Shown: positions 1,734 to 33,425 of the stretch, in pieces
How the letters are laid out: each line of letters opens with the position of its first letter
Numbering within the stretch: the stretch's first letter is position 1
Origin: an uncultured Bacilli bacterium
Lineage (GTDB): Bacteria; Bacillota_I; Bacilli_A; RF39; UBA660
Length of the DNA stretch: 64,000 bases
Assembly: GCA_947625575.1 (NCBI GenBank)
Contig: CANQOV010000001.1
Location: 1,498 to 65,497 of the forward strand
Reading direction: 5' to 3'
Translations under genes and position numbers: made by a program
The notes under the pieces: model-generated
Database searches by the model: none
The model's input: only the letters and a program-made list of their open reading frames with translations
What the model was told of the DNA's origin: nothing

Positions 1734-1755
1734 CAAATAGAAAGTAGGTGATAAC

Positions 1756-7607: not shown

Positions 7608-7916
7608 TTAAATCATAATAACAAATGCTACTGTATAATCTTTTTCATGAGAAATTGAAATTTTTATATTATTCCTACCAACACAATATGGAACACCATT
7701 TATATCATTTAATATTTCAAAATCTAAAAAATTATAACTTTTAGTATTATCTAAGGCTTTCATTATAGCTTCTTTTGCAGCAAATCTTCCACATAAATAA
7801 GAAAGTCCTTTCTCTTTATATAAAACTTGTTCTTTTGGTGTAAGAACTAACTCTATAAATCGTTTATTTCTATTTTTTAATCTTTTACTATAGACTATAT
7901 CGCATCCAATACTCAT
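7608..7916 (-). CDS. acpS: Holo-[acyl-carrier-protein] synthase (4'-phosphopantetheinyl transferase)
   Basis: 102 aa. N-terminus MSIGCDIVYSKRL… and …GRFAAKEAIMKAL… are typical of AcpS. Confidence 0.7.
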   Translation of the reverse strand: MSIGCDIVYSKRLKNRNKRFIELVLTPKEQVLYKEKGLSYLCGRFAAKEAIMKALDNTKSYNFLDFEILNDINGVPYCVGRNNIKISISHEKDYTVAFVIMI

Positions 7917-7981: not shown

Positions 7982-8010
7982 TTGAACGAAGCCCTAATAA
8001 ATGCTATAAT
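7982..8010 (+). promoter_or_regulatory. Sigma-A-type promoter for the FkbH/ACP/MBOAT cassette
   Basis: TTGAAC (7982-7987), 17-nt spacer, TATAAT (8005-8010). RBS GGTGA 8 nt before the ATG at 8031. Confidence 0.5.
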
Positions 8011-8030: not shown

Positions 8031-9809
8031 ATGAAAGAACTTGAATATCCATTTGACACAGAATATTTATTAAAAAATAAAAAAAAGATGAAAAGACAAC
8101 TATTAGAAAATCCCAATTTGCTTGAAAAAAACATAGCTATTTTAGGAGGATCAACAACAAGTGAAATTAAAAATATGTTAGAAATATTTTTACTTAATTA
8201 TGGAATAAAACCTAATTTTTATGAATCTGAATACAATAAATATTATGAAGATGCAATATTTGGAAATGAACAATTAGATGAATTTAATCCAGATATTATA
8301 TATATTCATACTACAAATAGAAATATAACTGATTATCCAACTTTATATGATGATGAAAAAACTATAGATGAAATGCTAAATAATGAATACAATAAATATA
8401 AAAAAATATGGGAAGCATTAAAAAATAAATACAAAGCCACAATAATTCAAAATAACTTTGAATATCCTTTTTATAGATTATTAGGTAATAAAGATGCTAG
8501 TGATATTCATGGTAAAATTAATTATATAACCAAACTTAACCAACTTTTTTATGATTATGCTAATAGTACTACTAATTTTTTTATAAATGACATAAATTAT
8601 GTTTCAGCTTGTTATGGATTAGATAAATGGTCTAACCAATTTTATTGGCATATGTATAAATATGCTTTAGAAGTTCCTGCAATACCATACCTTTCATTTA
8701 ACATTGCAGCAATTATTAAATCAATATATGGTAAAAATAAAAAAGCTTTAGTCCTTGATCTTGATAATACACTATGGGGTGGTGTAGTAGGAGATGACGG
8801 TGTTGAAAATTTAGATATTGGTCCAGAAGTGCCACAAGGACAAGTATATTTTGAATTTCAAAAATATTTAAAAGAACAAAAAAGTCTAGGTATTATTTTA
8901 AATATAAATTCTAAAAATGAATATGAAAATGCAATTGCTGGTCTAGAACATCCAGCAGGGCTTTTAAAAAAAGATGATTTTATAATTATCAAAGCTAATT
9001 GGAATCCAAAAAACTTAAATATCAAAGATATTGCAGAAGAATTAAATCTTGGTGCAGATAGTTTTGTCTTTGTAGATGATAATCCTGCTGAAAGAAAAGT
9101 TGTATATGATTATACTCCTGGTATTGCAACTCCAGAAATAGATGTACCTGAAAATTACATAAGAATCATTGATAAAAATAATTATTTTGAAATGACTAAT
9201 TTTTCTAAAGAAGATTTAAAGAAAAGTGAACTATATAAAGATAATGCTAAAAGAAGTCAAATGATGGCTACTTTTGATAATTATGATGATTATCTAAAAT
9301 CTCTTAAAATGAAGGCAGAAATAACATCTTTTAAACCAATATATCTTGAAAGAATATCTCAGCTATCTAATAAGAGTAATCAATTTAACTTAACCACAAA
9401 AAGATATTCTTTAAGTGATATAGAGGAAGTCTATAATAGTGATAACTATATCAAAATTTATGGTAAATTAGAAGATATTTTTGGTGATAATGGCGTAATT
9501 TCAGTTGTTATTGGTAATATTAAAAATAAAGATGAATTACATATTGATTTATGGATAATGAGTTGTAGAGTCTTAAAAAGAAATATGGAATTTGCTATGA
9601 TGGACGAATTAGTTAATCAAACCAAAGAAAGAAATATCAAAACAATATATGGCTATTATTATCCTACATTTAAAAATAAAATGGTCAAAGATTTTTATGA
9701 TTTACAAGGATTTACTTTAGTAAATGAAGATGAAGACGGTAACAAAACATACAAATTAGATGTTTTAAGTTATAAAAATAAAAATAATGTAATTGAGGTG
9801 AGCAAATAA
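8031..9809 (+). CDS. FkbH-like HAD-superfamily protein with extra N-terminal domain (putative carrier-protein loading enzyme)
   Basis: HAD motif I …ALVLDLDNTLWGG… at about residue 240, followed by an FkbH-like (HAD IIIC-type) region. 592 aa. The stop overlaps the start of a carrier-protein gene. Confidence 0.55.
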   Translation: MKELEYPFDTEYLLKNKKKMKRQLLENPNLLEKNIAILGGSTTSEIKNMLEIFLLNYGIKPNFYESEYNKYYEDAIFGNEQLDEFNPDIIYIHTTNRNITDYPTLYDDEKTIDEMLNNEYNKYKKIWEALKNKYKATIIQNNFEYPFYRLLGNKDASDIHGKINYITKLNQLFYDYANSTTNFFINDINYVSACYGLDKWSNQFYWHMYKYALEVPAIPYLSFNIAAIIKSIYGKNKKALVLDLDNTLWGGVVGDDGVENLDIGPEVPQGQVYFEFQKYLKEQKSLGIILNINSKNEYENAIAGLEHPAGLLKKDDFIIIKANWNPKNLNIKDIAEELNLGADSFVFVDDNPAERKVVYDYTPGIATPEIDVPENYIRIIDKNNYFEMTNFSKEDLKKSELYKDNAKRSQMMATFDNYDDYLKSLKMKAEITSFKPIYLERISQLSNKSNQFNLTTKRYSLSDIEEVYNSDNYIKIYGKLEDIFGDNGVISVVIGNIKNKDELHIDLWIMSCRVLKRNMEFAMMDELVNQTKERNIKTIYGYYYPTFKNKMVKDFYDLQGFTLVNEDEDGNKTYKLDVLSYKNKNNVIEVSK

Positions 9810-10048
9810 TGGAAGAAATATACGAAAGATTAAATCATGTTTTTCAAGATGTATTTGATGATGAGAATATCAAAGTAAATGAAAACACAACTGCAGATGA
9901 TATTGAAGACTGGGATAGTCTTGAACATATAAATCTTGTAGTGGCAGTAGAACAAGAATTTGGTATGAAATTCAACATGAGTGAAGTTACAACAATGAAA
10001 AATGTTGGAGACATGGCTAAAATAGTTCAAGAAAGAAAAACAAAATAA
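9809..10048 (+). CDS. Acyl/peptidyl carrier protein (DltC/ACP-like)
   Basis: 79 aa with the phosphopantetheine attachment motif …EDWDSLEHINLVVAVEQEFG… (DSL). Confidence 0.75.
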   Translation: MEEIYERLNHVFQDVFDDENIKVNENTTADDIEDWDSLEHINLVVAVEQEFGMKFNMSEVTTMKNVGDMAKIVQERKTK

Positions 10049-10058
10049 GCTTATAGGA

Positions 10059-10514
10059 GTGATAAAAATGAAATTTCATCATATTGGAATAGCAACAAAT
10101 AACATAGAAAGAACAAAAGAAAAATTACAAAAGTTTTTTAATGTAAAAGAAATATCAAATACCATATATGATAAAAATCAAGATGCGTACTTATGTATGA
10201 TCACTTTAGATGACAATATAAAAATTGAACTTATAAATGGCAAAGTAGTAGAAAATATTTTAAAGAAAAGACAATATCTATATCATACTTGTTATGAGAC
10301 AGATGATTTAGAAAATGAAATGAAAAAGTTAATAGATGATGGTGCTTTTCTTGTAAGTGATGCAAAAGAGGCAATTTTGTTTGATAACCAGAAAGTTGCT
10401 TTTTTGATGTGGGATTTAGGTCTCATAGAATTACTTCAAAAAGATATCCCGGGGGGGGTAATTTATAAAATCTTTTATAAATTATCAACAAATTTAGTAG
10501 GAGTGGTAGCATGA
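10059..10514 (+). CDS. VOC-family (glyoxalase / methylmalonyl-CoA epimerase fold) protein
   Basis: N-terminus MKFHHIGIATNNIER… is typical of VOC / glyoxalase-I-like enzymes. Contains a G8 homopolymer (10451-10458). Confidence 0.5.
   Translation: MIKMKFHHIGIATNNIERTKEKLQKFFNVKEISNTIYDKNQDAYLCMITLDDNIKIELINGKVVENILKKRQYLYHTCYETDDLENEMKKLIDDGAFLVSDAKEAILFDNQKVAFLMWDLGLIELLQKDIPGGVIYKIFYKLSTNLVGVVA
10451..10458 (+). repeat. G8 homopolymeric tract inside a CDS, 53 nt upstream of the overlapping MBOAT start
   Basis: CCCGGGGGGGGTAA, read directly. Gains or losses of one G create near-immediate stops (G7 gives …ccg ggg ggg TAA). Confidence 0.9.
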
Positions 10515-12040
10515 ATTTAACATCATTTAGTTTTATAATATTTTGTATTTTAACATTTACATTATATTTTAGTTTTCCAAAAAAATATAAATGGATAGTT
10601 TTATCTGTATCAAGTTTATTTTTTCTATTCTATAAAAATGTTACATTATCAACTTTGCTACAAGCTTTAATTATTCTTTTTGTATCATATTTTATTGGAT
10701 TAAAACTTGAAAAAAATAAAAATACAAAAACTGGTAAAAAATATTTAACATTTGGAATTTTAATTATTTTAGGTGTACTTATATATCTAAAATATACTAA
10801 TTTATTTTTAACAACTTTTAATCATCTATTTAATTTATTCAATATTAATTTTCAATTTGAATTAGTACATCATAATTCTCTTATAGGTCTTAGTTATTTT
10901 TCCTTAATAATGATTGGATATTTAACTGATATTTATCGTGGTGTTACTAATGCTGAAAAAAATATATTTAAATGTGCTTTATTTATGAGTTATTTTCCAA
11001 TTTTAAATTCTGGTCCTTTCGTAAAATATGATCAAATGAAAGAAAGTTTATATAAAGATCATAAATTTGATTTTGATAGATTAAAAAGAGGAGCAATAAG
11101 AGTTTTATGGGGAATATTTAAAATTCTTGTTATTTCCCAAAGACTTGGTATATTTGTAGATAAAGTATATGGCGATTTAACTAAATTTAAAGGTGTATAT
11201 GTTGTAATAGCGTGTTTGTTCTTTACATTGCAATTATATACTAATTTTTCTGGCTCAATTGATATGATTATGGGTATTTCAGAAATATTTGATATTAAAT
11301 TACCTGAAAACTTTGATGCACCATTTTTCTCAAAGACAATAACTGAATTATGGAGAAGATGGCACATAACTCTTGGTGCTTGGTTAAAAGATTATATATT
11401 TTATCCTTTATTAAAATCTGATTTTATGCAAAAAATAGGAAAATTTTGCAAAGAAAAATTTGGTAAGAAAGCCTATAAAAAAGTTCCACTTTATTTATCT
11501 ATGTTTGTTATGTGGATATTAATTGGAGCTTGGCATGGTGGAGCTTATACATTTATAATTGGATCTGGATTATTACAATTTATTTATATGTTTTTAGAAG
11601 ATAATTTAACTCCAATATCAGATAAAATAAATAACAAACTTGGCATAAACAAAGAAACATTTATTTATAGATTATATCAAAGAATAAGAACTTTTCTATT
11701 ATTTTCTTTTTCAATGATATTCTTTAGAGCAGAAAGCGTTAGTAAAGCAATAAAAATCATAAAAGCAATGTTTGTAAGAAATTATCATGTTTTAATAGGA
11801 AAATCACTATTCAAAGCAGGTCTTAATATAAGTAATTTTGCAGTATTAATAATAGCATTAGTAATTCTATTTATCGTTGAATTATTTAAAAATCGTGGCA
11901 AAGACGTAAGAGATATTTTAGATAAGCAAAATATAGTATTTAGATGGATAATTTATTTTGCCTTAATATTTGGTATAATTATATTTGGTTGTTATGGAGT
12001 AGGATATAATCCAGCTGACTTTATTTATAGAGAATTTTAG
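10511..12040 (+). CDS. MBOAT-family membrane O-acyltransferase (DltB/AlgI-like)
   Basis: 509-aa polytopic membrane protein. MBOAT-like C-terminal core (…WRRWHITLGAWLKDYIFYPL… with the conserved His). Overlaps the upstream stop (ATGA). Confidence 0.8.
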   Translation: MNLTSFSFIIFCILTFTLYFSFPKKYKWIVLSVSSLFFLFYKNVTLSTLLQALIILFVSYFIGLKLEKNKNTKTGKKYLTFGILIILGVLIYLKYTNLFLTTFNHLFNLFNINFQFELVHHNSLIGLSYFSLIMIGYLTDIYRGVTNAEKNIFKCALFMSYFPILNSGPFVKYDQMKESLYKDHKFDFDRLKRGAIRVLWGIFKILVISQRLGIFVDKVYGDLTKFKGVYVVIACLFFTLQLYTNFSGSIDMIMGISEIFDIKLPENFDAPFFSKTITELWRRWHITLGAWLKDYIFYPLLKSDFMQKIGKFCKEKFGKKAYKKVPLYLSMFVMWILIGAWHGGAYTFIIGSGLLQFIYMFLEDNLTPISDKINNKLGINKETFIYRLYQRIRTFLLFSFSMIFFRAESVSKAIKIIKAMFVRNYHVLIGKSLFKAGLNISNFAVLIIALVILFIVELFKNRGKDVRDILDKQNIVFRWIIYFALIFGIIIFGCYGVGYNPADFIYREF

Positions 12041-12048
12041 GTGATAAA

Positions 12049-13101
12049 ATGAAAAATTATAAAAATTTAATAAAAGTTATAATATTTATTTTTATATTTT
12101 GTATATTATGGCATATAACATTTAAAATATTGTGGGGTGAAAATACAGCACTTTCTTATTTTTATGAAGAAAAAGAAAACACAATTGATGTAGCCTATGT
12201 TGGTGCTAGTAATGTTTACGTATACTTTAACACAACACTTGCATACAACGAATATGGTTTTACAACCTATAATATTGCTACCGACTCGCAACCATTTGTC
12301 TATATAAAATACCTCCTTAAAGAAATTCAAAAATACCAAAAACCAAAACTTTACATAATTGATATAACGAGAATTATTTCAAATCCAGATTATTATGATG
12401 AAAATTCAATAAGAAAATTAATTGATAGTATGAAAAAATCATATAATCAATATGAAGCTTTAACTAGTGTTTTGGATTATTTAGAAATGCCAAATGAAGA
12501 AAGAGTAAATTATTATTTTAGTTTTCTTTTATATCACAATAGATGGGAAGACTTTAAAGGGAAAAGTTTGACTGAAAATACAAATTTATATAAAGGTTTT
12601 CAAACAAAAAATTATAATTTCAATATTAAACCTCAAAAGAAAATATTATGGAATAATGATTCATCTATTAAAGTAACTGACAAAAATAAAGAAGTTTTGC
12701 TAGATTTATTAGAATATATAAATGATAATAATTTAAACGTACTTTTTACAATTCCATGTAGAACATTTAATGCTACAGAAATGAGTAAATTAAATGATGC
12801 AACCAAAATTATTAATAAATATGACTACCAAGTAATAAATTTTAATCAAAATGATTCTTACATTGATTACTCAAATGACTTATATAATCCAAATCATTTA
12901 AATATATATGGCTCAACAAAATTTACATTATATTTTGCCAAATATTTAGATAATATTTATAATTTGCCTGATCATAGAAATGATGAAAAATATTCATCTT
13001 GGGTTGAAGAATACAATAGATTTAAAAGCAAATATGAGCAAAAAACAAATAATAATTTTGAAGCTTTAGTCAAAGAATATAAAGAAAAATATAATTTTTA
13101 A
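12049..13101 (+). CDS. DltD/AlgJ-like membrane-anchored SGNH-fold protein (MBOAT partner)
   Basis: N-terminal TM anchor. Putative nucleophile block VAYVGASNVY and His block NPNHLNIYG. Sits immediately after the MBOAT gene. Weak motif-level call. Confidence 0.4.
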   Translation: MKNYKNLIKVIIFIFIFCILWHITFKILWGENTALSYFYEEKENTIDVAYVGASNVYVYFNTTLAYNEYGFTTYNIATDSQPFVYIKYLLKEIQKYQKPKLYIIDITRIISNPDYYDENSIRKLIDSMKKSYNQYEALTSVLDYLEMPNEERVNYYFSFLLYHNRWEDFKGKSLTENTNLYKGFQTKNYNFNIKPQKKILWNNDSSIKVTDKNKEVLLDLLEYINDNNLNVLFTIPCRTFNATEMSKLNDATKIINKYDYQVINFNQNDSYIDYSNDLYNPNHLNIYGSTKFTLYFAKYLDNIYNLPDHRNDEKYSSWVEEYNRFKSKYEQKTNNNFEALVKEYKEKYNF

Positions 13102-15021: not shown

Positions 15022-16131
15022 ATGGCTTATTTATTAATTATCCCCAAATTGATAATAAAATTTATTTATTTAATTTTTAGAATTTTTCCTATTAACGAAA
15101 AAAAAGTTGTTTTCATAAGTAGGCAATCTAATTCTATAACATTAGATTTTAAATTATTAAAAGAAGAAATAACAAAATTAGATGATAGTTTTAAAATAGT
15201 TGTGTTATGCAATAAATTACAAATGTCTTTTAAAGGAATAATTAGTTATTCTTTTGTAATAATTAAACAATTATATCATTTAGCAACTTCTAAAGTGTGT
15301 GTTGTTGATTCCTATTGCATGGCCTTAAGCAATGTAAAATTAAAAAAAGGAATAACTGTTATACAAATATGGCATGCAATAGCTACAATTAAAAAATTTG
15401 GATATCAAACAATATATAAACAATATGGAAGGCAAAGCAAAGTGGCTAAAATCCTTAATATGCATAAAAATTATGATTATGTAGTATCAGGATCAGAAAC
15501 TATGAAACCAATATTTGCTGAAGCTTTTAATGTGCCAACAAGTAAAGTTATCTGCTGTGGTACACCAAGAATAGATTATTTACTAAGAAATTGTGACAAT
15601 ATTAAAGATGAGATATTGAAACATTATCCTCAATTAACCAAAAAGAAGAATATTTTATATGCTCCAACTTTTAGAAGAGACAAGGATATTGGTATTAATA
15701 AATTAGTAAATATTATTGATTTTAATAAATATAATCTTATAGTTAAAACTCATCCAGTAAAAAATCAGACTTTTAATAATAAATTTATTTTAAATTGTAA
15801 AGAATTTATTACAACAGATTTACTAACTGTTGCTGATTATGTAATAACTGATTATTCTTCTATTTGTATAGAATCAGCTTTATTAAACAAGCCTACTTAT
15901 TTTTATTTATATGATATTGATGATTATAATAAATTTAATGGTTTAAATGTTGATTTAGAAAAAGAAATGAAGCCATATTGTTTTAAGAATTTTAATAAAT
16001 TATACAAATCATTAGAAAAAAATTACCAATACGAAAAATTACATAATCTAAAAAATAAATATGTTACAAATCAAAATGGAAATTCTACAACTACTTTAGC
16101 TGAACTTATTGTCCATAATAGGCAAAATTAA
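15022..16131 (+). CDS. CDP-glycerol glycerophosphotransferase family protein (TagB/TagF-like)
   Basis: TagF-family motif …IQIWHAIATIKKFGYQ… plus a C-terminal …YFYLYDIDDY… region. Confidence 0.65.
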   Translation: MAYLLIIPKLIIKFIYLIFRIFPINEKKVVFISRQSNSITLDFKLLKEEITKLDDSFKIVVLCNKLQMSFKGIISYSFVIIKQLYHLATSKVCVVDSYCMALSNVKLKKGITVIQIWHAIATIKKFGYQTIYKQYGRQSKVAKILNMHKNYDYVVSGSETMKPIFAEAFNVPTSKVICCGTPRIDYLLRNCDNIKDEILKHYPQLTKKKNILYAPTFRRDKDIGINKLVNIIDFNKYNLIVKTHPVKNQTFNNKFILNCKEFITTDLLTVADYVITDYSSICIESALLNKPTYFYLYDIDDYNKFNGLNVDLEKEMKPYCFKNFNKLYKSLEKNYQYEKLHNLKNKYVTNQNGNSTTTLAELIVHNRQN

Positions 16132-16138
16132 AATAATA

Positions 16139-16167
16139 TTGCTTATATCAATAATAAATGATAAAAT
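16139..16167 (+). promoter_or_regulatory. Possible sigma-A promoter ahead of the phosphonate module
   Basis: TTGCTT, 17-nt spacer, TAAAAT. RBS GAAAGGAAG before the ATG at 16196. Confidence 0.3.
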
Positions 16168-16195
16168 GTAATTATAGTGAAAGGAAGTAAACAAA

Positions 16196-17503
16196 ATGAA
16201 AAAAAAGGTTTATATAGCAATGTCTGCTGATGTTATACATCAAGGTCACATCAATATCATCGAAGAAGGTGCAAAATATGGAGATGTAATAATTGGTTTA
16301 CTAACTGATGAAGCTATTGCTAGTTACAAACGCATGCCACTATTAAATTATGAAAATAGAAAAAAAATATTTGAAAATCTTAAAAATGTTACTGAAATAG
16401 TACCACAAAGCACGCTTGACTATACTGAAAATCTAAGAAAAATTAAACCAGATTATGTATTACATGGAGATGATTGGCGTACAGGAATTCAAAGTGTAGT
16501 TAGAGATAATGTAATTAATACCTTAAAAGAATGGAACGGAGAATTAATTGAAATACCTTATACTAAAGATGTAAATTCTACTGATTTAGAACATAAATAT
16601 CGTGAACTTACAAATACACCTGATATAAGAAGAGCAAAACTTCGTCAACTTTTAAAATTTAAACCATATATAAGTGTTATGGAAGCATCAAATGGATTAT
16701 CAGGATTAATTGTTGAAAATGCAACTGCCATTAATCGCGATAGTAAAACGACAAAAGAGTTTGATGCGATGTGGGTTAGTAGTTTATGTGATTCAACATT
16801 TAAAGGAAAACCTGATATTGAATTAGTTGATTTAACTAGTAGAATAAATACAATCAATGAAATATTGGAAGTTACTACTAAACCAATAATATTAGATGGT
16901 GATACTGGTGGTAAAATAGAGCATTTTGTATACAATGTTAAAACCTTAGAAAGACTTGGAGTTTCAGCTATTATTATTGAAGATAAAACAGGTTTAAAGA
17001 AAAATTCATTATTTGGTACAGAAGTTAAACAAACTTTAGATGATCCAGATAGATTTGCAGAAAAAATAAAAGCAGGAAAACAAGCTCTTGCAACAAAGGA
17101 TTTCATGATTTTTGCAAGATTAGAAAGCTTAATTGCTGGTATGGGAATAGATGATGCTTTATCAAGAGCTGATAAATATATCGAAGCAGGAGCAGATGGA
17201 ATAATGATTCACAGCAAAGAAAAAACAGGATTGGATATAAAAGAATTTTTAGAAAGATTTAAGAAAAAATATCATAATGTTCCAACAATAGTAGTACCTA
17301 CTTCATATAATCAATTTACAGAAGAAGAATTACATGAGTGGGGTGCAAATATAATTATTCATGCAAATCATTTATTAAGGAGTGCATATCCAGCAATGAT
17401 GAAAACAGCTAAAACAATACTAGAAAATGGCAGAAGCAAAGAAGCTGATGAGTATTGTATGCCAATAAAAGAAATTATAACATTAATTCCGGGGGGAAAA
17501 TAA
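16196..17503 (+). CDS. pepM: Phosphoenolpyruvate mutase (PepM/AepX) with N-terminal cytidylyltransferase-like (HxGH) domain
   Basis: N-terminus …[16 protein letters not shown]… (HxGH nucleotidyltransferase). C-terminal PEP mutase core …ILDGDTGG…IIIEDK…. Confidence 0.8.
17492..17497 (+). repeat. G6 tract at the pepM stop / ppd start junction
   Basis: …att ccg ggg gga aaa TAA a ATG… Loss of one G puts ppd in frame with pepM. Confidence 0.85.
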
Positions 17504-17504
17504 A

Positions 17505-18614
17505 ATGATAGATACAGAAGAATTTTACAAATATTTAATTAGTAAAAAACTTGATTTTTTTGCTGGTGTTCCTGATTCTTTATTAAAAAACTTATGTGCT
17601 TGCATTAAAGCTAACACTAAAACAGATCACAACATCATTGCTGCCAATGAGGGAAATGCTATTGCAATGGCTGCAGGATATCATATTGCATCAGGCAATT
17701 ATGGTGTCGTATATATGCAAAATTCTGGTATCGGAAATGCAGTTAATCCATTACTTTCTTTAGTAGATGAAGAAGTGTATAGTATTCCAATGCTATTAAT
17801 TGTAGGTTGGAGAGGAGAGCCGGGCACAAAAGATGAGCCACAGCATGTTAAACAAGGAAAAGTAACTATTGAATTATTTAAAACAATGGGAATTGAAACT
17901 ATTATTTTAGATGAAAATTATAAAAGCCAAATAGACTATTGTTATAATTATATGAAAGAAAACAATAAACCAATTGCTGTTATCATAAAAAAAGGTTTAT
18001 TTAGTAATTATAAAATAGATATGCCTGAAAACAATTATCAAATAAAAAGAGAAGAAGCTTTAGAAACAATATTAAAATGTTTAGATAAAGATGATTTTGT
18101 AGTTTCAACTACAGGAAAAACATCAAGAGAAATTTTTGAAATAAGAGAAAGAGATAACGAAGAACACAGTAATGACTTTTTAACAGTTGGATCTATGGGA
18201 CATACTTCATCTATTGCACTTGGTATGAGTATTGGGTGTGACAAAAATATTTATTGTATAGATGGCGACGGATCTTTTATTATGCATATGGGCTCTTTTG
18301 CCATAATTCCATCAGTAGCAAGTAAAAATTTTAAATATATTTTAATAAACAATGGTGCTCATGAATCTGTAGGAGGTCAACCAACTGTAGCATTTAATAT
18401 TAACGTTAAAGATACATTATTATCATTAGGTTTTAAAAATGTTTATACAGCATATACAAAAGAAGATATTGAAAAATATATGAAAAATTTAAAATACGAC
18501 AAATTACAAGCATTAGTAGTTTACACTAAATTAGGATCTAGAGAAGATTTAGGACGTCCTACAATTAGTCCTGTTGATAATAAAAAATCAATGATGAAAA
18601 AATTAAATAAATAA
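17505..18614 (+). CDS. ppd: Phosphonopyruvate decarboxylase (TPP-dependent)
   Basis: TPP-binding motif …CIDGDGSFIMHMGS… Size 369 aa. Immediately downstream of pepM. Confidence 0.75.
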   Translation: MIDTEEFYKYLISKKLDFFAGVPDSLLKNLCACIKANTKTDHNIIAANEGNAIAMAAGYHIASGNYGVVYMQNSGIGNAVNPLLSLVDEEVYSIPMLLIVGWRGEPGTKDEPQHVKQGKVTIELFKTMGIETIILDENYKSQIDYCYNYMKENNKPIAVIIKKGLFSNYKIDMPENNYQIKREEALETILKCLDKDDFVVSTTGKTSREIFEIRERDNEEHSNDFLTVGSMGHTSSIALGMSIGCDKNIYCIDGDGSFIMHMGSFAIIPSVASKNFKYILINNGAHESVGGQPTVAFNINVKDTLLSLGFKNVYTAYTKEDIEKYMKNLKYDKLQALVVYTKLGSREDLGRPTISPVDNKKSMMKKLNK

Positions 18615-18643
18615 CATTAAAATGGAGGAAGTAATAATATTCA

Positions 18644-19387
18644 ATGAAAGCAATAATATTTAATTCAGGAATCGGAAAAAGGATGGGGGATTTCACAAAA
18701 ACACATCATAAGTGCATGGCTGTACTAAATAATGGTGAAACAATATTAGAACGTCAAATAAGAATAATTGGTGAAAATGGAATAAATACATTTATCATCA
18801 CAACCGGTCCATTTAAGCAACAATTATTAGAAGTATGCAAAAAATTCCCTGATTATCAATTTGTTTTTGTTGATAATCCTTTATATCAAAAAACAAATTA
18901 CATATATTCCATGTATTTAGCAAAAGATTATCTTAATGATGATGTTTTATTGCTTCATGGAGATTTAGTATTTAATCAAGAACTAGTAAAAAGTATGCTA
19001 GGTGATAAACGTAGTTCAGTATGTTTAATAAATGAAGACAAACCATTACCTGAAAAAGATTTTAAAGCAAGGGTAGAAAATGGATTATTAAAAGAAGTAT
19101 CAATAAATATCTTTGATAGCAATTGTTATGCTTTTGAGCCATTATACAAGTTAAGTAAATCTGATTTATTAAAATGGCTAGAAAAAGTGAAAGAATTTGT
19201 AAATGAGGGCAATGTAAGCGTTTATGCCGAAAATGCATTGAATACTATATTAGACACATTAAAAATATATACTAAATCATATAAAAATGATTATATTGAT
19301 GAAATAGATAATATTGATGATTATTCAAGAGTTAGAAAAGAAATAGATGAATATGAAAAGAAAAGATTAAGATCTTTGAGAGGATAA
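18644..19387 (+). CDS. LicC/PntC-like cytidylyltransferase (NDP-activation of a phosphonate or phospho-alcohol)
   Basis: N-terminus MKAIIFNSGIGKRMG… gives the nucleotidyltransferase G-x-G-x-R motif. About 240 aa, as for LicC. Confidence 0.6.
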   Translation: MKAIIFNSGIGKRMGDFTKTHHKCMAVLNNGETILERQIRIIGENGINTFIITTGPFKQQLLEVCKKFPDYQFVFVDNPLYQKTNYIYSMYLAKDYLNDDVLLLHGDLVFNQELVKSMLGDKRSSVCLINEDKPLPEKDFKARVENGLLKEVSINIFDSNCYAFEPLYKLSKSDLLKWLEKVKEFVNEGNVSVYAENALNTILDTLKIYTKSYKNDYIDEIDNIDDYSRVRKEIDEYEKKRLRSLRG

Positions 19388-19388
19388 A

Positions 19389-21707
19389 ATGAAACAACAA
19401 ATATATATTGATAATTATAAAAATTTAAATAAAAAAATAGATTTTAAAAAATACAAATCAATTTTATTGATTTGTAGTAATTTTATTTTAGATTCATTTT
19501 TTTATGATTACATAACTAAATTGAATTTACCAATACATATTTTTACAAATTTTAGTCCTAATCCTAAATATGAAGAAGTTCTAGAAGGTATAAAAATTTT
19601 TAAAGAAAATAAATGTGATTTTCTTATAGCAGTGGGTGGAGGAAGTGCCTTAGACGTTGCAAAAGCTATCAAAGCTTTTGTGTTTTTAGATGAAAATAAA
19701 AATTATTTAGAGCAAAAAATAGTGCCAAATAATATACCACTTCTTGCTGTTCCAACCACTGCAGGAACAGGTAGTGAAGCTACAAAATTTGCCGTTATAT
19801 ATTACGCTGGAGCAAAACAGTCATTAGAAGATGAATCATTGCTTCCAGATTATGTAATACTTGAGCCAAAGTTTCTAGAAAGCCTACCAGAATATCAAAA
19901 AAAATCAACTCTTTTAGATGCTTTATGTCATGCAATAGAATCATACTGGTCAATTAATGCTACCAAAGAAAGTAGAAAATATGCCAAACAAAGTTTAGAA
20001 ATAATTCTTAAAAACTATAAAGATTATCTAAATAATCCAACAAAAAAATTAAATAGTGAAATATTAAAAGCAGCTAATTTAAGTGGAAAAGCCATAAATA
20101 TAAGTAAAACGACCGCAGCTCATGCCATGAGTTACAAAATAACATCAATATATGGTTTATCACACGGACACGCTGCTGCAACATGTCTTCCACTTGTATG
20201 GAAATATATGTTAAAATACTCTAACAAAGAATTAGATAAAATATTTAATGATTTAGATAAAATATTTAAGACAACTTCACACCAAGAATCTATTAATAAA
20301 TTGTATTCAATCTATGATGAAATAGGATTAAAATATAAAAACATTGTAAATAAAGAGGATTTAGATAAATTAGTGGAAACAGTTAATATAAATCGTTTAA
20401 AAAATAGTCCAGTACCATTAACACAAAAAGATGTGAAAAAGATATATAGTAAATTAGTTATAAAAGAAAACAAAACATTTAAAAAAAGTATTAAAAACGT
20501 CGTAAATAAAATTCCTTTCATCAAAAAAATATTAAATTATCTTTTATTAATAAAAAGGAAAGTAGTATATAAATTTTATAAAATACGTTACAAAACCAAT
20601 GATAAAATAATCATATTTTCATCTTTTTGGAGTAAAAAATATAATTGTAATCCTAAAGGTATATATGAAGCATTATTAAAGAACAAAAAATATAACGACT
20701 ATAAATTTGTTTGGGTATTTAAAAATCCAAAGCAGTACACTTTTTTAAATGATAACCATAATACCACAACAGTGCGTTTATATTCTAAAAAGTACTATAA
20801 ATATTGTGCACAAGCCAAATATTTTATAACTAATGTTTCATTACCTAGTTGGGTAACACCAAAGAAAGATCAAATATATATAAATACTTGGCATGGTAAA
20901 CCAATGAAAAAAATTGGTTGTAATATAGATCACTCTGCTTTACCACCAAAAAAACTAAAAAAGCAAACAAAAGGATTTAAAAGAAATGGCAAAATATTTA
21001 CCTACTTGTTTTCACCAGCACCATTTTTTACAGCACAAATGGCTACAGCCTATGGTCTTGGAAAAGATAGCAAAAAAGTTATTGAAGTAGGCTATCCAAG
21101 AAATGATTTTTTATTCACATATACAGCCAAAGATGCTAAAGAAATAAAAGATAAATTAAATATTAAAGATAATAAAAAAGTTATATTTTATGCTCCAACT
21201 TGGAGAAATTATGAATATGATACTAAAAAATATAGTTATACTTATCAAAATCATCTAGACTTTGATAAATTAATTAAACAACTAGGAAATGATTATGTAA
21301 TTTTATTTAAAGCCCACAATCAAGAAGAGAACAGTGCTGATATATCAAATTATAAAAATGTTATTGATGTTAGTAGTTTTGACGATATTAACGAATTGTA
21401 TATCATCTCAGATTTAATGATTTCTGATTATTCTGGAGCAATCTTTGACTATGCTAACTTACATCGACCAATGGTTTATTACATGTGGGATAAAGATGAA
21501 TATGTAAATGAAAGTCAAGGCATTGACTTTGATTTTAACGAATTGCCCGGAGAAATTGTTACAAAAGAAGAAAATTTAGCTTCTGCTATAAAAAATGCAT
21601 TAAATAATTTTAAGTATGATGAAAAATATAAAAAATTTAATGAAAGATATAATTGCTTAGATGGAAAAGATTGTGGAAATAAATTCATTGAAAAATATAT
21701 AAAATAG
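19389..21707 (+). CDS. Fusion protein: N-terminal iron-containing alcohol dehydrogenase (putative phosphonoacetaldehyde reductase) and C-terminal TagF-like CDP-alcohol phosphotransferase
   Basis: N-terminal …LIAVGGGSALDVAKAIKAF… is the group-III Fe-ADH signature. C-terminal …YINTWHGKPMKKIG… is the TagF-family motif. 772 aa. Confidence 0.6.
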   Translation: MKQQIYIDNYKNLNKKIDFKKYKSILLICSNFILDSFFYDYITKLNLPIHIFTNFSPNPKYEEVLEGIKIFKENKCDFLIAVGGGSALDVAKAIKAFVFLDENKNYLEQKIVPNNIPLLAVPTTAGTGSEATKFAVIYYAGAKQSLEDESLLPDYVILEPKFLESLPEYQKKSTLLDALCHAIESYWSINATKESRKYAKQSLEIILKNYKDYLNNPTKKLNSEILKAANLSGKAINISKTTAAHAMSYKITSIYGLSHGHAAATCLPLVWKYMLKYSNKELDKIFNDLDKIFKTTSHQESINKLYSIYDEIGLKYKNIVNKEDLDKLVETVNINRLKNSPVPLTQKDVKKIYSKLVIKENKTFKKSIKNVVNKIPFIKKILNYLLLIKRKVVYKFYKIRYKTNDKIIIFSSFWSKKYNCNPKGIYEALLKNKKYNDYKFVWVFKNPKQYTFLNDNHNTTTVRLYSKKYYKYCAQAKYFITNVSLPSWVTPKKDQIYINTWHGKPMKKIGCNIDHSALPPKKLKKQTKGFKRNGKIFTYLFSPAPFFTAQMATAYGLGKDSKKVIEVGYPRNDFLFTYTAKDAKEIKDKLNIKDNKKVIFYAPTWRNYEYDTKKYSYTYQNHLDFDKLIKQLGNDYVILFKAHNQEENSADISNYKNVIDVSSFDDINELYIISDLMISDYSGAIFDYANLHRPMVYYMWDKDEYVNESQGIDFDFNELPGEIVTKEENLASAIKNALNNFKYDEKYKKFNERYNCLDGKDCGNKFIEKYIK

Positions 21708-21719
21708 AAAGGGGTATTT

Positions 21720-24149
21720 ATGAATAAAAACATAAAAGTCTCGGTTATCGTTCCGGTGTATAATGTAGAAAAATATTTAGATAAATGTTTAACATCATTA
21801 GTTAATCAAACACTGAAAGATATTGAAATAATTGTAGTAAATGATGGTACCAAAGACAATTCACAACATATTATTGATAAATATACTAAACAATATCCAA
21901 ATAAGGTTTTTTCCTATATTAAAGAAAATGGTGGATTATCTTCTGCTAGGAACTATGGTGTTTTAAAAGCACACGGGGAATATTTAGGCTTTGTTGATAG
22001 TGATGATTACGTTGATATAAATATGTATGAACTTATGTACAATAAAGCTCATAACACTTCATCTGATATTGTTGTATGTGGACTTACTTCAATATATCAA
22101 AATAAAGATACTCTTAAATTTGTCCCTCAAACTGATATTTTTGGCTATTCACTTACAGAAAGTCCAGACATAATGTTGCAGTGTAATTCATATGCTTGCA
22201 ACAAAATTTATAAAAGAAAAATGTGGATAGATAACAACATTGAATTTCCTAATCAATGGTTTGAAGATAGTGCTTTAATATATAACGCTTTATATTATGC
22301 AAATAAAATTGAGGTGGTAAAAGAGCCACTTTACATGTACTTAAGAACTAATGAAAACTCTATTGTTAATACAATTAATCCCAAGATATTTGATATCTTT
22401 AAATCTTGTGATTCATTATTATCTTTTTATAAAGATAAAGGTAATGACTTATATAGAAATGCTTGCAACTTATGTATTTCCCATGTAACAGCAAGATTTT
22501 TATATTTTAAAAATTCTCACGATAAAAAAATTATCAATGATTTTAAAAATAAAGCCAAAGATTACTTTGATAAGCATATTCCAAATTGGGATAGTAGAAA
22601 ATATCAAAAAGAATTACATTATAGACCAAAATTCATAAAAAATGGTATCACATATATAAACAATAAATTTCTTTACGATTTACTAAAAATAATAGAAAAA
22701 ATAAAAAAAGTATTAATAAAAATTGCAAAGAAAATGTTAAGAATTTTATCAAAAATATTTAATAAAAAAAGAGATGTCGCTCCTCTTAAAGATGTATTTA
22801 AAATATTTAAAAAATTAAATATAACTTACTTTTGTGAATTTAACACTTTAATTGAAGTAACAAACAATAAAATGCCAAACAGTAATTCTTTAAATATTGG
22901 TATTATATTAAATAATGATAAAATTAATATTTTAAAATATAATTTACTACAAAAAAATATAATTTTAAAAAAAGAATATTACTACAATAATAAAGTATAT
23001 GCTCAAGATTATCTATACGAAAAATTAAAAATAAGATTTAATTTTTATGAAATAGAAGATAAAAAACTAATAACTTATGTTTTTAAAAAATTAAAAAATA
23101 TCAAATATAAACCATACAAAATAGATGCTTTAAAAATTAAACAAACAATAATAAAAGATATAGAAACAGTTAATATCAATAATATAGAATTTTCCATACC
23201 AAAAAACTATGATGAAATATTAAAAACAGATTATGGATTAAGCTATATTAAATCAAATAATATAAAAGACATAAAAAACTCTGAAATAATAAAAAACAAT
23301 TCTTATTTTAAAAGAATAATAAGTTATAATAATGATGGCATTGATTATAGAGAAGAAAATTATAAAATGCTACAAGAACTACATAAAATAGAGCTTGAAA
23401 TTCTAAAAGAAATAAATAAAATATGTAAACGCAATAAAATAAATTTCTATTTAGGTGAAGGGACATTACTAGGAGCAGTAAGACATCAAGGATTCATACC
23501 ATGGGATGATGATATTGATTTAATTATGCCAAGAGAAGATTATGAAAAATTCTTAAAAATTGCCCCACAAGAAATATCAAAAGATTTTGAAATTCAGCAT
23601 AGTTCTTTAATTGAAAATTATTGGTCTCCTTTTATTAAAGTAAGATATTTAAAAGAAAACAAATTTAAACAAACGCACATTGCACATTTAACTGATCATA
23701 ATGGTCCATTAATTGATATTTTCCCTTTAGATAATGTTCCAAAAAAAGATAGTTTAGGTCAAATGATACAAGCAATAAGAATCAAATTTAACCGAGGGAT
23801 GTTATCATATAAATTAAAAACAAGATTTCCTAAAAAGTGGAAAGGATATATTGTTAAATGTTGTTCTTACTTTGTAAGTGTAAAACATATTCATAAAGTA
23901 TTAAATAAAACTTTTGTTAAATACAACAATAAAAATAATCCATATATTGTTAATTTAGGAAGTTACTATAGTTATAAAAAACAAACACATCCTAAAAAAT
24001 GGTATGCTAAACCACAAATGGTAAAATTTGAAAATTTGACTATGCCAATACCACATGAGGCCAAAAAAATATTATCAAGTGTATATGGCAAATATATGGA
24101 ACTACCACCTGTTGAAAAAAGAGCTATAAAACATCACTTTGATGAATAA
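21720..24149 (+). CDS. Fusion protein: N-terminal GT2 glycosyltransferase, long K/N/I-rich middle region, C-terminal LicD-family phosphotransferase
   Basis: N-terminal …VSVIVPVYNVEKYLDKCL…VVNDGTKDN…GFVDSDD… is GT-A/GT2. C-terminal …GEGTLLGAVRHQGFIPWDDDIDLIMPRED… is the LicD motif. 809 aa. Confidence 0.65.
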   Translation: MNKNIKVSVIVPVYNVEKYLDKCLTSLVNQTLKDIEIIVVNDGTKDNSQHIIDKYTKQYPNKVFSYIKENGGLSSARNYGVLKAHGEYLGFVDSDDYVDINMYELMYNKAHNTSSDIVVCGLTSIYQNKDTLKFVPQTDIFGYSLTESPDIMLQCNSYACNKIYKRKMWIDNNIEFPNQWFEDSALIYNALYYANKIEVVKEPLYMYLRTNENSIVNTINPKIFDIFKSCDSLLSFYKDKGNDLYRNACNLCISHVTARFLYFKNSHDKKIINDFKNKAKDYFDKHIPNWDSRKYQKELHYRPKFIKNGITYINNKFLYDLLKIIEKIKKVLIKIAKKMLRILSKIFNKKRDVAPLKDVFKIFKKLNITYFCEFNTLIEVTNNKMPNSNSLNIGIILNNDKINILKYNLLQKNIILKKEYYYNNKVYAQDYLYEKLKIRFNFYEIEDKKLITYVFKKLKNIKYKPYKIDALKIKQTIIKDIETVNINNIEFSIPKNYDEILKTDYGLSYIKSNNIKDIKNSEIIKNNSYFKRIISYNNDGIDYREENYKMLQELHKIELEILKEINKICKRNKINFYLGEGTLLGAVRHQGFIPWDDDIDLIMPREDYEKFLKIAPQEISKDFEIQHSSLIENYWSPFIKVRYLKENKFKQTHIAHLTDHNGPLIDIFPLDNVPKKDSLGQMIQAIRIKFNRGMLSYKLKTRFPKKWKGYIVKCCSYFVSVKHIHKVLNKTFVKYNNKNNPYIVNLGSYYSYKKQTHPKKWYAKPQMVKFENLTMPIPHEAKKILSSVYGKYMELPPVEKRAIKHHFDE

Positions 24150-24153
24150 AAAT

Positions 24154-24189
24154 ATATTTAGAATAATAAACTAAATATGTTTTTTTATT
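24154..24189 (+). terminator. Putative rho-independent terminator after the GT2::LicD gene
   Basis: ATATTTAG-aataataaa-CTAAATAT followed by GTTTTTTTATT. The stem is AT-rich, so the hairpin is weak. Confidence 0.35.
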
Positions 24190-24368
24190 AAATTTATTTT
24201 AATTTTCTGATTATTTAGTTTTTATCATGTACATAATAAAAAATAGTAACTTCTTTAGAAATATCATACAATAAATATTCAGTGATATTAATCAATAAGA
24301 ATAATATGAAGTCATCAAAAGAATTTAATTGATTTTCATATATAATATGATTATGCCCTGACATATTG

Positions 24369-24397
24369 TTGACAGAGTCCGGGGGGGGGGTTATAAT
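24369..24397 (+). promoter_or_regulatory. Promoter with a homopolymeric G10 tract forming the -35/-10 spacer (candidate phase-variable promoter)
   Basis: TTGACA (24369-24374), spacer GAGTCC+G10+T = 17 nt, TATAAT (24392-24397). RBS AAGGTGG, then ATG at 24432. Confidence 0.5.
24381..24390 (+). repeat. G10 homopolymer (simple-sequence contingency tract)
   Basis: Ten consecutive G in an AT-rich genome, read directly. Confidence 0.95.
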
Positions 24398-24431
24398 AAA
24401 AATATAAATTAGTATATCAAAGGTGGTTTAA

Positions 24432-25220
24432 ATGAAAGAAAAAATATTGTTATTTATACCAATGTATAACTGTGAAAAACAAGTAATAAGAGTTTTAAAT
24501 CAAATAGATAGCGAAGTAGCAAAATATATAAAAGAAATATTAGTAGTAAATAACCGAAGCACCGATAATGGTGAAAAAGCTGTGCTCGATTTCACCAAAC
24601 AAAGCAAGCTTAAAATTACTATAGTAAGAAATGATGAAAACTATAACCTTGGAGGATCACATAAAGTTGCTTTTCAATATGCAATTGATAATGAATATGA
24701 CTATGTAATTGTATTGCATGGTGATGATCAAGGTAATATTCATGATTTATTACCTTATCTTAAAAATGAAGATTATAAAAAATATGATTGTTTACTTGGA
24801 TCACGATTTATAAAAGGATCAAAATTACAAGGATATTCTAAATTTAGAACATTTGGTAATATAGTATATAACTATTTATTTTCTTTTGTAATTCATAAAA
24901 GAGTATATGATTTAGGATCTGGATTAAATATGTATTCTACTGAAATGTTAAAAAGCAATTACTATTTTAAATTCCCAGATAAATTAACATTTAACTATTT
25001 AATGGTATTAGCAATACATTACTATCATCAAAATGTTAAATTTTTCCCAATTACATGGAGGGAAGATGATCAAGTATCTAATGTTAAAATGGTTAATCAA
25101 GCATTTGAGGTTTTAAAAATGTTATTTAAATACATGTTTAATCATGATTATATAAAAAGTGAATTTAGAGATAAACAAGTACGAAAATATACATATAAGG
25201 AAATAAAAAATGACAAATAA
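24432..25220 (+). CDS. GT2 family glycosyltransferase (GtrB / polyprenyl-phosphate sugar synthase-like, soluble form)
   Basis: …LLFIPMYNCEKQV…VVNNRSTDN…VLHGDDQG… 262 aa. Confidence 0.65.
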   Translation: MKEKILLFIPMYNCEKQVIRVLNQIDSEVAKYIKEILVVNNRSTDNGEKAVLDFTKQSKLKITIVRNDENYNLGGSHKVAFQYAIDNEYDYVIVLHGDDQGNIHDLLPYLKNEDYKKYDCLLGSRFIKGSKLQGYSKFRTFGNIVYNYLFSFVIHKRVYDLGSGLNMYSTEMLKSNYYFKFPDKLTFNYLMVLAIHYYHQNVKFFPITWREDDQVSNVKMVNQAFEVLKMLFKYMFNHDYIKSEFRDKQVRKYTYKEIKNDK

Positions 25221-27484: not shown

Positions 27485-27878
27485 TGACATAACTTTAGTT
27501 TTTGATGTAGATGGCACTCTTTGTCCGATTAAAACTACTGATGAAGAATACAAAGACTTAATACCAGATAAAGAAATGGTTGAGAAATTAAAAATGTACA
27601 AAAAAGAGGGTGCCAAAATTATTATATATTCATCAAGAAACATGAGAACATATCAAGGCAACATAGGTCTTATAAATGCTAATACAGCTGTAATTATGCA
27701 AGATTGGTTAAAAAAATGGGATATTCCTTATGATGAAATATATTTTGGCAAGCCATGGGCAGGTAAAAAAGGAATATACATAGATGATCGTTGTGTAAGA
27801 CCTGATGAATTTCTAAATTATTCTTTTGATGAACTTGAACAAATATGTAAAAAATCTAGTAGAGTAAAAGGAGAATAA
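27477..27878 (+). CDS. Small HAD-superfamily phosphatase
   Basis: HAD motif I …LVFDVDGTLCP… and motif IV …GIYIDDR… 133 aa. Confidence 0.55.
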   Translation: MYNDITLVFDVDGTLCPIKTTDEEYKDLIPDKEMVEKLKMYKKEGAKIIIYSSRNMRTYQGNIGLINANTAVIMQDWLKKWDIPYDEIYFGKPWAGKKGIYIDDRCVRPDEFLNYSFDELEQICKKSSRVKGE

Positions 27879-27882
27879 AATT

Positions 27883-30662: not shown

Positions 30663-30733
30663 ATATAAACCTTGGTTTCAACTTGCAAATATACTGCTTT
30701 GTGCGATATAATAATACAGTAAATGAAAAACAA

Positions 30734-30762
30734 TTGCTAATCTAAAAATATAATGTTATACT
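30734..30762 (+). promoter_or_regulatory. Possible promoter for tagGH-like exporter genes
   Basis: TTGCTA, 17-nt spacer, TATACT. RBS AAAGAGGTG before the ATG at 30790. Confidence 0.3.
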
Positions 30763-30789
30763 ACAAATACAAACAAAAAGAGGTGTTAC

Positions 30790-33398: not shown

Positions 33399-33400
33399 TG

Positions 33401-33425
33401 AAGCAGGTTATCCTGCTTTTTATTT
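33401..33425 (+). terminator. Rho-independent terminator
   Basis: AAGCAGG-ttat-CCTGCTT followed by TTTATTTC. Confidence 0.55.

Follow-up and report, generated by a model that had tools for sequence, protein, structure and literature searches.

A putative Dlt-like cassette with an FkbH-type loader for the O-acylation of surface polymers in an uncultured Bacilli bacterium

The DNA considered here is a stretch of 64,000 nucleotides from an uncultured Bacilli bacterium (contig CANQOV010000001.1 of assembly GCA_947625575.1; G+C content ~25%), referred to as the window. Within it, a cassette of five genes combines an FkbH-type enzyme with a carrier protein, a VOC-fold enzyme, an MBOAT protein and an extracytoplasmic SGNH protein. 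According to the list of open reading frames (ORFs) of the window, all five are encoded on the plus strand and packed into positions 8031-13101. The first gene (8031..9809) codes for a long-form FkbH-type loader of 592 aa with an N-terminal SGNH-like domain, a HAD phosphatase domain and a C-terminal GNAT-fold domain. It is followed by the gene of a 79-aa acyl carrier protein (ACP; 9809..10048; PF00550), whose predicted phosphopantetheine site is S37 in the motif DWDSLEH, and by the gene of a 151-aa VOC-fold metalloenzyme (10059..10514; PF13669) with the ligands H8, E57, H76 and E124. Next are a DltB-like MBOAT of 509 aa (10511..12040; PF03062), containing H285 (RWH), H342 (AWHG) and a C-terminal DFIYREF, and a 350-aa protein called P5 here (12049..13101), which has an N-terminal membrane anchor and an extracytoplasmic SGNH domain with S54 in VGAS and H283 in NHLN. 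The first two ORFs overlap by 1 nt, the VOC ORF follows after 10 nt and overlaps that of the MBOAT by 4 nt, and another 8 nt separate the latter from the P5 ORF.

Upstream of the FkbH gene and divergent from the cassette lies acpS (7608..7916, minus strand), the gene of a holo-ACP synthase, a phosphopantetheinyl transferase (PF01648, 4.9e-14; TIGR00516, 63 bits with a cut-off of 59.8). The same acpS-FkbH divergence is found in the related loci L001, L013, L015 and L097. The first-pass annotation of this DNA had described five tightly coupled genes with a divergent acpS and without a DltA-type adenylation enzyme. Coordinates, strand and spacing agree with this, no AMP-binding or DltA-like gene is present in the cassette, and tblastn across the 64-kb window revealed no such homologue either. 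A promoter-like site on the plus strand (7982..8010; TTGAAC, 17 nt, TG-n-TATAAT) is located 21 nt before the FkbH start codon. It has 10/12 consensus matches and an extended -10 element, and is a consensus match only, from a scan in which sites in the window are no more numerous than in shuffled sequence. A scan for a terminator-like site between the P5 gene and nusB (13114) found none.

The loader scores well above the cut-off of the FkbH domain model TIGR01686 (258.6 bits vs 146.65), with residues 237-562 covering model positions 3-320 of 323, and is also matched by FkbH_N (PF21211). Its HAD motifs are D243/D245/T247, S294-K295-N296, K327 and D349-D350, and the cysteine C512 is part of an S-C-R-V motif. 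Among 35 relatives of 31-75% identity, D243, K295, N296, K327 and D349 are invariant, and D245, T247, S294, D350 as well as M510-S511-C512-R513 are nearly so. Furthermore, a five-way alignment of distant homologues shows no variation at these positions, among them D243, D245, T247, S294, K327, D349, D350 and the cysteine of S-C-R-V. This alignment includes the Sinorhizobium meliloti homologue, a 359-aa FkbH protein from a non-ribosomal peptide synthetase/polyketide synthase (NRPS/PKS) cluster on a Bacillus thuringiensis plasmid, and a fusion of FkbH with a peptidyl carrier protein (PCP) and a thioesterase. The genes next to the B. thuringiensis protein are arranged like those around zmaN in the zwittermicin cluster. 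The existence of the FkbH-PCP-thioesterase fusion suggests that this FkbH clade feeds carrier proteins.

With the HAD motifs, the S-C-R-V motif and the GNAT fold kept, the 592-aa protein is, as judged from its sequence, a bona fide member of the FkbH family. It appears to possess a transferase half besides its phosphatase half and is not a bare phosphatase, so that the earlier assignment as an FkbH loader, and not as an unrelated HAD phosphatase, is borne out. The mechanism described for the family leads from 1,3-bisphosphoglycerate via a phosphoglyceryl-S-enzyme and a glyceryl-S-enzyme to glyceryl-ACP (PMC9057759). FkbH relatives are numerous: with clustering at 50% identity, 13,808 cluster representatives match at E <= 0.001, and 5,046 do so at E <= 1e-30.

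The carrier protein matches PF00550 with 23.8 bits (cut-off 20.8), the DSL motif being at residues 36-38. Its best match in the PDB is the putative ACP 2lml (1.4e-17) and the remaining PDB matches are ACPs, not DltC. Likewise, its matches in NCBIfam are ACP models only, and the DltC model is not among them.

The VOC enzyme matches Glyoxalase_4 (PF13669) with 59.2 bits (cut-off 27; 5.7e-16). Its nearest solved relative is glyoxalase I of Clostridium acetobutylicum (3hdp/2qh0, ~1e-16), with which all four ligands align, and H8, E57, H76 and E124 are kept in 15/15 cassette VOCs. The methylmalonyl-CoA epimerase model TIGR03081 gives 31.5 bits, below its cut-off of 114.95. The true start of the VOC gene is probably the ATG at 10068 and not the annotated GTG at 10059. 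At the other end, the ORF carries a non-conserved tail of ~24 aa (KDIPGGVIYKIFYKLSTNLVGVVA; window 10440-10514), and homologues have 125-130 aa. The slot between ACP and MBOAT is filled by either of two VOC subfamilies, which share only 23-29% identity; the VOCs of the Clostridia-type cassettes are at this distance (23-29%) from the window VOC. Two close VOC homologues whose surroundings were looked up (P0486 and P0496) both lie inside FkbH cassettes. The possibility that the VOC protein is a stray housekeeping glyoxalase was considered and rejected because of the slot shared by the two subfamilies and the position of these two homologues.

The MBOAT protein reaches 37.5 bits for PF03062 (cut-off 27). 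Its sole NCBIfam match is the DltB model TIGR04091 with 115.7 bits (2.8e-33), below the cut-off of 375, and it is not an equivalog. DltB structures (6bug and 8jem) are its only PDB relatives, and here the RWH (H285) and WHG (H342) histidines align. A C-terminal F-[ILV]-Y-x-x-F motif is present in 70/73 MBOATs of the FkbH loci described below, with DFIYREF in the window and FLYQGF in S. meliloti; the exceptions are two incomplete reading frames and the full-length protein of L053, which ends in FIYASI. In the Dlt system, DltX is a small protein with a C-terminal tyrosine motif. Such a motif is reportedly shared by DltX and AlgI-type proteins, and F-[ILV]-Y-x-x-F resembles it. The gaps of the cassette leave no room for a separate ORF of DltX size.

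For P5, no meaningful match was obtained in Pfam, NCBIfam or the PDB sequences, the best PDB match being an adenine phosphoribosyltransferase with an E-value of 0.15, and neither PF16822 nor PF14286 (the AlgJ/AlgX/DHHW families) is matched. Since sequence searches gave nothing, the assignment was reached via structure prediction only. The AlphaFold 2 model (pLDDT 93.4) adopts an SGNH fold, and DltD is the longest or best structural match in the fold comparison. D47, G52, S54, G70, H283, N285 and G288 are invariant among the relatives of P5, and P5 is proposed as the final O-acyltransferase. Thus the FkbH, carrier protein, VOC and MBOAT assignments of the first-pass annotation all exceed Pfam or NCBIfam cut-offs. 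Its fifth assignment, a DltD/AlgJ-like protein, holds for the DltD-like fold, and by sequence P5 matches neither the DltD nor the AlgJ family model.

A scan with one genome per species gave the best 80 of at least 587 FkbH matches (48-83% identity), and their neighbours were scored with hidden Markov models built from clustered neighbour proteins. The closest matches come from rabbit-gut 'Bacilli' metagenome-assembled genomes (MAGs). Others are from Lachnospiraceae, Oscillospiraceae, Ruminococcus including R. flavefaciens 007c, Eisenbergiella tayi DSM 26961, Pseudobutyrivibrio, Odoribacter, Synergistales and Endomicrobiellum. An ACP gene is adjacent to FkbH in 73/80 of these species-representative loci and an MBOAT gene lies within 9 kb in 58/80. 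When the count is restricted to the 46 loci that have 5 kb or more of sequence on each side, the ACP is present in 43 and the MBOAT in 36. P5 is found near FkbH in 20/80 loci and a DHHW protein (PF14286, 3.3e-50, weakly AlgX-like) in 25/80, with one or the other in 44/80. This order of genes is repeated across many independent genomes, and the arrangement of the cassette is therefore not due to chance. The cassette is no rarity but belongs to a very large family that comprises several variants.

These variants differ in their tailoring genes. MaoC is found near FkbH in 18/80 loci, an SDR in 13/80, a VOC in 12/80 and a split transketolase in 8/80. VOC and MaoC never occur together (0/80), nor do VOC and SDR (0/12), and MaoC is accompanied by SDR in 13/18 loci. 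A remodelling of the acyl group by the VOC enzyme, as suggested earlier, is in line with this mutual exclusion with the MaoC dehydratase, as well as with the fixed slot between ACP and MBOAT in two subfamilies. In a neighbour-joining tree of FkbH, calculated without bootstrap support, VOC-type cassettes are scattered over five or more positions, and a large clade consists of DHHW-type cassettes, which almost never carry tailoring genes. In the clade closest to the window (77-83% identity), VOC-type cassettes (the window, L013, L014 and L015) are interleaved with MaoC+SDR-type cassettes (L010-L012), so that FkbH proteins of ~80% identity pair with either tailoring set. The split transketolase genes (PF00456; PF02779 with PF02780) are present, often together with MaoC, in L018, L021, L033, L040, L044, L049 and L050. 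These point to yet another acyl chemistry entering the same MBOAT relay.

Identity to the window proteins amounts to 77-83% for FkbH, 72-78% for ACP, 59-65% for MBOAT and 43-49% for P5, and judged by these sequences conservation declines from the inside of the cell to the outside. P5 is present in 1-5 paralogues; close relatives with an FkbH protein of 75% identity keep acpS and all five genes and have three P5 paralogues. MBOAT similarity does not follow the tailoring type, with 62-65% identity to MaoC/SDR-type vs 59% to VOC-type relatives. If it had tracked the tailoring type, acyl specificity of the MBOAT would have been suggested.

The pair of MBOAT and P5 is also combined with other loaders. 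P5 relatives of 25-35% identity revealed this pair with varied loader modules (L005, L006, L007 and L009). In L007 (5498-10948), MBOAT and P5 are encoded together with a DltA-like adenylation enzyme (300 bits with a DltA subfamily model), a PLP decarboxylase-like protein and a 76-aa carrier. In L009, they are accompanied by an acyl-CoA-ligase-like enzyme, a carrier protein and a divergent 2-hydroxyacid dehydrogenase gene. L005 and L006 represent a polysaccharide locus (glycosyltransferases, Wzy, LytR) with FkbH, ACP, MaoC dehydratase, SDR, MBOAT and P5 paralogues. Since the same MBOAT-P5 module occurs with DltA-like loaders (L007 and L009) and with FkbH plus ACP, the latter in dozens of species, the loader appears to have been swapped, in agreement with the view of the first-pass annotation that the adenylating enzyme is replaced by an FkbH loader. 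L007 belongs to another Firmicute; a few genes separate its cassette from nusB further downstream, and a SpoIVB gene lies beside it. The cassette of the window directly abuts nusB.

Several relatives have further features of their own. The P0486 VOC is very common (143 blocks). In L094-L096 (5952-11346), its cassette is embedded in the dcw cluster, between mraZ-rsmH-ftsL and the genes of a penicillin-binding protein, murE and mraY, and the P5 relative has 475 aa. The P0496 cassette (L097, an Erysipelotrichales MAG) adjoins acpS. In its P5 relative (9840-10832), Cys replaces the predicted nucleophile Ser (ILGDCEVY); this protein carries the precomputed Pfam label PF27429 LB_356 and has weak DUF1574 and GDSL matches only.

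FkbH was also matched in 40 replicons of S. meliloti (pSymB and equivalents; plasmid records). The gene order was read from one replicon, p_2 of strain RCAM1750 (L091, 815-5849), where an MBOAT, a 409-aa protein, an ACP and a 628-aa 'HAD-IIIC family phosphatase' are encoded beside GT2 and capsule genes. In S. meliloti 1021, the cassette is located on pSymB at about 631-633 kb. The 409-aa protein is SGNH-like, with an N-terminal anchor and the motifs GGST and DPGH; its annotation as 'TonB-dependent receptor' looks like a misannotation.

Genes of the cell envelope adjoin the cassettes repeatedly: glycosyltransferases, Wzy and LytR in L005, dcw in L094, GT2 and capsule genes in S. meliloti, and a teichoic-acid-type locus with phosphonate genes in the window (15022..32315, plus strand). 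The latter begins 2 kb downstream of the cassette, with nusB, xseA and xseB in between. It encodes a TagB-like primase (TagB/TagF-like glycerophosphotransferases), a fusion of a cytidylyltransferase with a phosphoenolpyruvate mutase (TIGR02320, 6.9e-117), a phosphonopyruvate-decarboxylase-like enzyme of the thiamine-pyrophosphate type, and a TagF-like polymerase in fusion with an iron-dependent alcohol dehydrogenase. The set is completed by a fusion of GT2 with LicD, a protein of 687 aa containing a GtrA domain, and an exporter of the ABC-2 type. This suggests a wall polymer with a hydroxyethyl- or aminoethyl-phosphonate head group, and from its proximity to the cassette this polymer is a candidate and likely the acceptor.

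Other features of the window were noted as well. Directly after the polymer locus, a SpoIVB peptidase gene is present (32406-33398), which indicates that the organism is probably a spore-forming Firmicute. The GC skew of the plus strand changes from positive to strongly negative at about 33000-42000, and the gene orientation changes from plus to minus at ~41.3-41.5 kb, a pattern expected at a replication terminus. At the left end (396-3469), the gene of a type II secretion system/type IV pilus-like ATPase and two platform (T2SSF) genes are located.

Taken as a unit, the cassette can be read as an ACP-dependent, Dlt-like machinery for the trans-membrane O-acylation of a surface polymer, which takes its acyl group from glycolysis and not from an adenylated amino acid. 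We consider this probable and hold it with moderate confidence; our confidence in the VOC step and in the acceptor is much lower. From family membership and linkage statistics we infer four stages: priming, loading, membrane passage and polymer esterification. AcpS would convert the 79-aa carrier into its holo form at S37. The FkbH enzyme would then use 1,3-bisphosphoglycerate to form a phosphoglyceryl and subsequently a glyceryl thioester on C512, with dephosphorylation at the D243/D245 HAD site, and its GNAT-fold domain would hand the D-glyceryl unit over to the ACP. The substrate, the VOC reaction, the tyrosine relay and the acceptor we infer likewise. The VOC metalloenzyme may form a metal-bound enediolate from glyceryl-S-ACP and release L-glyceryl-ACP by C2 epimerisation, the favoured reaction, or alternatively expel the 3-OH from the enediolate to give pyruvoyl-ACP. 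The DltB-like MBOAT would dock the acyl-ACP at the cytoplasmic face and move the acyl group across the membrane, probably via the tyrosine of its own C-terminal F-I-Y-R-E-F motif. Finally, P5 (S54/H283) would take over the acyl group and esterify a hydroxyl of an envelope glycopolymer. If the tyrosine motif reported for DltX and AlgI holds here, the relay would run from the ACP thioester to a MBOAT Tyr ester, a P5 Ser ester and then the polymer.

The tailoring sets fit into this scheme as a coherent picture, in which no tailoring leads to a glyceryl product, MaoC plus SDR to a lactyl product and VOC to a third one. Whether FkbH-ACP-MBOAT-SGNH cassettes in general form an unrecognised large class that ester-links D-/L-glyceryl or lactyl groups, with tailoring swapped between close relatives as a means of surface variation, we regard as evenly balanced.

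Several points weigh against this interpretation. Every cassette member is known here from genes alone, and we know of no demonstrated case of an FkbH homologue serving an MBOAT. The 80 FkbH loci are a best-scoring subset and not a random sample. In 22/80 of them an MBOAT is absent within 9 kb; some of these contigs end early, yet the MBOAT is also missing in 10/46 loci with full flanks, which suggests that the loader also serves other acceptor enzymes. Furthermore, MBOAT, ACP and P5 each fall short of the corresponding curated model (DltB, DltC and DltD). The closest structure to the VOC enzyme is glyoxalase I and not an epimerase, its score being far under the methylmalonyl-CoA epimerase cut-off, and the epimerase reading draws on chemical arguments and on statistics of gene context that are uncorrected for phylogenetic relatedness. 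The connection between cassette and acceptor is one of proximity only.

For the VOC step, the alternative is that the enzyme acts as a dehydratase or isomerase, so that loss of the 3-OH would yield pyruvoyl-ACP and a polymer with a 2-oxoacyl ester or a product derived from it. The H-E-H-E ligands are those of the glyoxalase-I type, as is the best PDB match; this implies enediolate chemistry beside a thioester, and the MaoC dehydratase, with which VOC is mutually exclusive, would carry out the same dehydration. However, the SDR that comes after MaoC in 13/18 loci is never recruited by VOC, which is therefore no simple dehydratase stand-in for the lactyl route, and general chemistry predicts that a surface decoration ending in an alpha-keto ester would be labile. 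To our knowledge, VOC enzymes working at the alpha-carbon of acyl thioesters are epimerases only. For these reasons the pyruvoyl route is considered unlikely, and C2 epimerisation is tentatively favoured, at somewhat less than an even chance, a good part of the probability going to neither reaction; the preference is weak because both the ligand set and the nearest structure are glyoxalase-I-like. A wider departure concerns the loader itself, which might load a unit other than glyceryl or act only as a phosphatase, the ACP being charged by an enzyme encoded elsewhere. The assayed FkbH enzymes include no long-form, MBOAT-linked member, the N-terminal SGNH-like domain has no assigned role, and the split transketolase genes of some cassettes hint at other acyl chemistry. 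Nevertheless, we regard this as quite improbable, given the invariance of the HAD motifs and the S-C-R-V cysteine with the NRPS/PKS-cluster FkbH, the score over the full FkbH domain, a window without another loader and the ACP gene abutting the FkbH gene in nearly every locus. MaoC plus SDR is, moreover, what a 2,3-dihydroxyacyl thioester needs to become lactyl.

The destination of the acyl group can be questioned in a similar way. Peptidoglycan, lipoteichoic acid or a glycolipid, a capsule made elsewhere or a glycoprotein might be the acceptor, and the dcw-embedded relative makes such other acceptors possible. Against this, the teichoic-type locus is the nearest envelope pathway in the window, and polysaccharide genes adjoin the cassette in L005 and in S. 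meliloti; an acceptor elsewhere is thus a doubtful though serious candidate. That the cassette would not decorate the envelope at all but produce a diffusible small molecule (tetronate-like or an acylated metabolite) is suggested by the characterised FkbH enzymes, all of which belong to polyketide or non-ribosomal peptide pathways. Here, no ketosynthase, FabH-like, condensation or thioesterase gene is present in or near the cassette, it is invariantly partnered by an MBOAT with a C-terminal F-x-Y-x-x-F and by an SGNH protein outside the cytoplasm, and its neighbours are envelope genes, which leaves such a product highly improbable.

Ester decorations of teichoic acids, capsules and exopolysaccharides set the surface charge, the recognition by phages and antibodies, and the resistance against host peptides. 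How they are made is poorly charted, with the exception of D-alanine, acetate and some further groups, and the cassette predicts a new decoration drawn straight from glycolysis. In the gut, this type of FkbH is common among Lachnospiraceae, Oscillospiraceae, Ruminococcus and Erysipelotrichales-like bacteria, and it is also present on pSymB of S. meliloti. The large cassette family of gut bacteria and S. meliloti is apparently unstudied. Here, the swaps of tailoring genes between close relatives suggest a serotype-like diversification of the surfaces of gut commensals. Furthermore, the cassette would supply a defined donor for the MBOAT-SGNH relay. If true, this would be the first natural handle on the acyl supply to AlgI/PatA-type MBOATs and on the C-terminal tyrosine relay. 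As the cassette type is widespread and occurs in cultivable, genetically tractable organisms, the question of MBOAT donor and relay is directly testable. A literature search, which covered few subscription journals, found no description of an FkbH-ACP-MBOAT system. Within this coverage, the papers since 2015 that mention FkbH concerned natural products or were unrelated to bacterial surface polymers, with the exception of one that notes cj1302.

Among the known systems, FkbH, OzmB and ZmaN, which provide methoxymalonyl- or hydroxymalonyl-ACP units, share with the cassette the FkbH domain, the HAD motifs, the cysteine motif and a dedicated ACP. In contrast to the long-form loader, these proteins have ~360 aa and no N-terminal domain, as in OzmB (366 aa) and BafAIV (367 aa). 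They feed dehydrogenases, a methyltransferase and a PKS, whereas the product of the cassette would pass to an MBOAT. A closer parallel to the tailoring is given by the FkbH-dehydratase-ketoreductase (FkbH-DH-KR) loading modules, for example of bryostatin BryA, which give a lactyl starter unit. The sister cassettes with FkbH, ACP, MaoC, SDR and MBOAT would repeat this route from glyceryl via dehydration and reduction to lactyl. However, the enzymes of the cassettes are free-standing, the acyl group would go to a surface polymer, and the window harbors the VOC variant.

Glycan modification has its own precedents. The FkbH-domain gene cj1302 belongs to the flagellar glycosylation locus of Campylobacter jejuni, with no function stated (PMC7099621). 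It resembles the cassette in being placed in a glycan-modification locus and not in a PKS cluster, but that pathway would acylate a cytoplasmic nucleotide sugar and has no MBOAT/SGNH relay. Native gellan bears an L-glycerate ester, so glycerate esters do occur on bacterial polysaccharides. Its L configuration would need inversion of an FkbH-derived D-glyceryl unit. A literature search on the gellan glycerate acyltransferase found nothing relevant, and we know of no genetic link between this ester and an FkbH cassette.

In the O-acetylation systems AlgI-AlgJ/AlgF/AlgX, WssH-WssI and PatA-PatB, an MBOAT likewise acts together with extracytoplasmic or periplasmic SGNH transferases on an exported polymer, and the AlgX-like DHHW partner (PF14286) is found in sister cassettes, not in the cassette of the window. 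For alginate and cellulose acetylation, the donor of the MBOAT-SGNH pair has been described as unknown (PMC8892547). Unlike in AlgI, WssH and PatA, the operon itself encodes the donor pathway, namely loader and ACP, and the acyl group would not be acetate. Most similar is DltABCD(X), whose general scheme consists of a carrier protein, a DltB-type MBOAT and a membrane-anchored SGNH protein (PMC8892547). This path from the carrier via the MBOAT to an SGNH protein outside the cell would be the same in the cassette. In contrast to Dlt, DltA is missing and an FkbH-type HAD/GNAT loader is present, so that the acyl group should be a C3 hydroxy acid and not D-alanine, a VOC tailoring enzyme is added, and the carrier is ACP-like and not DltC-like. 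There is also no separate ORF of DltX size, and the MBOAT itself ends in F-I-Y-R-E-F. As interpreted here, the cassette thus works like Dlt but is not a Dlt system, since only the fold and the catalytic histidines are shared.

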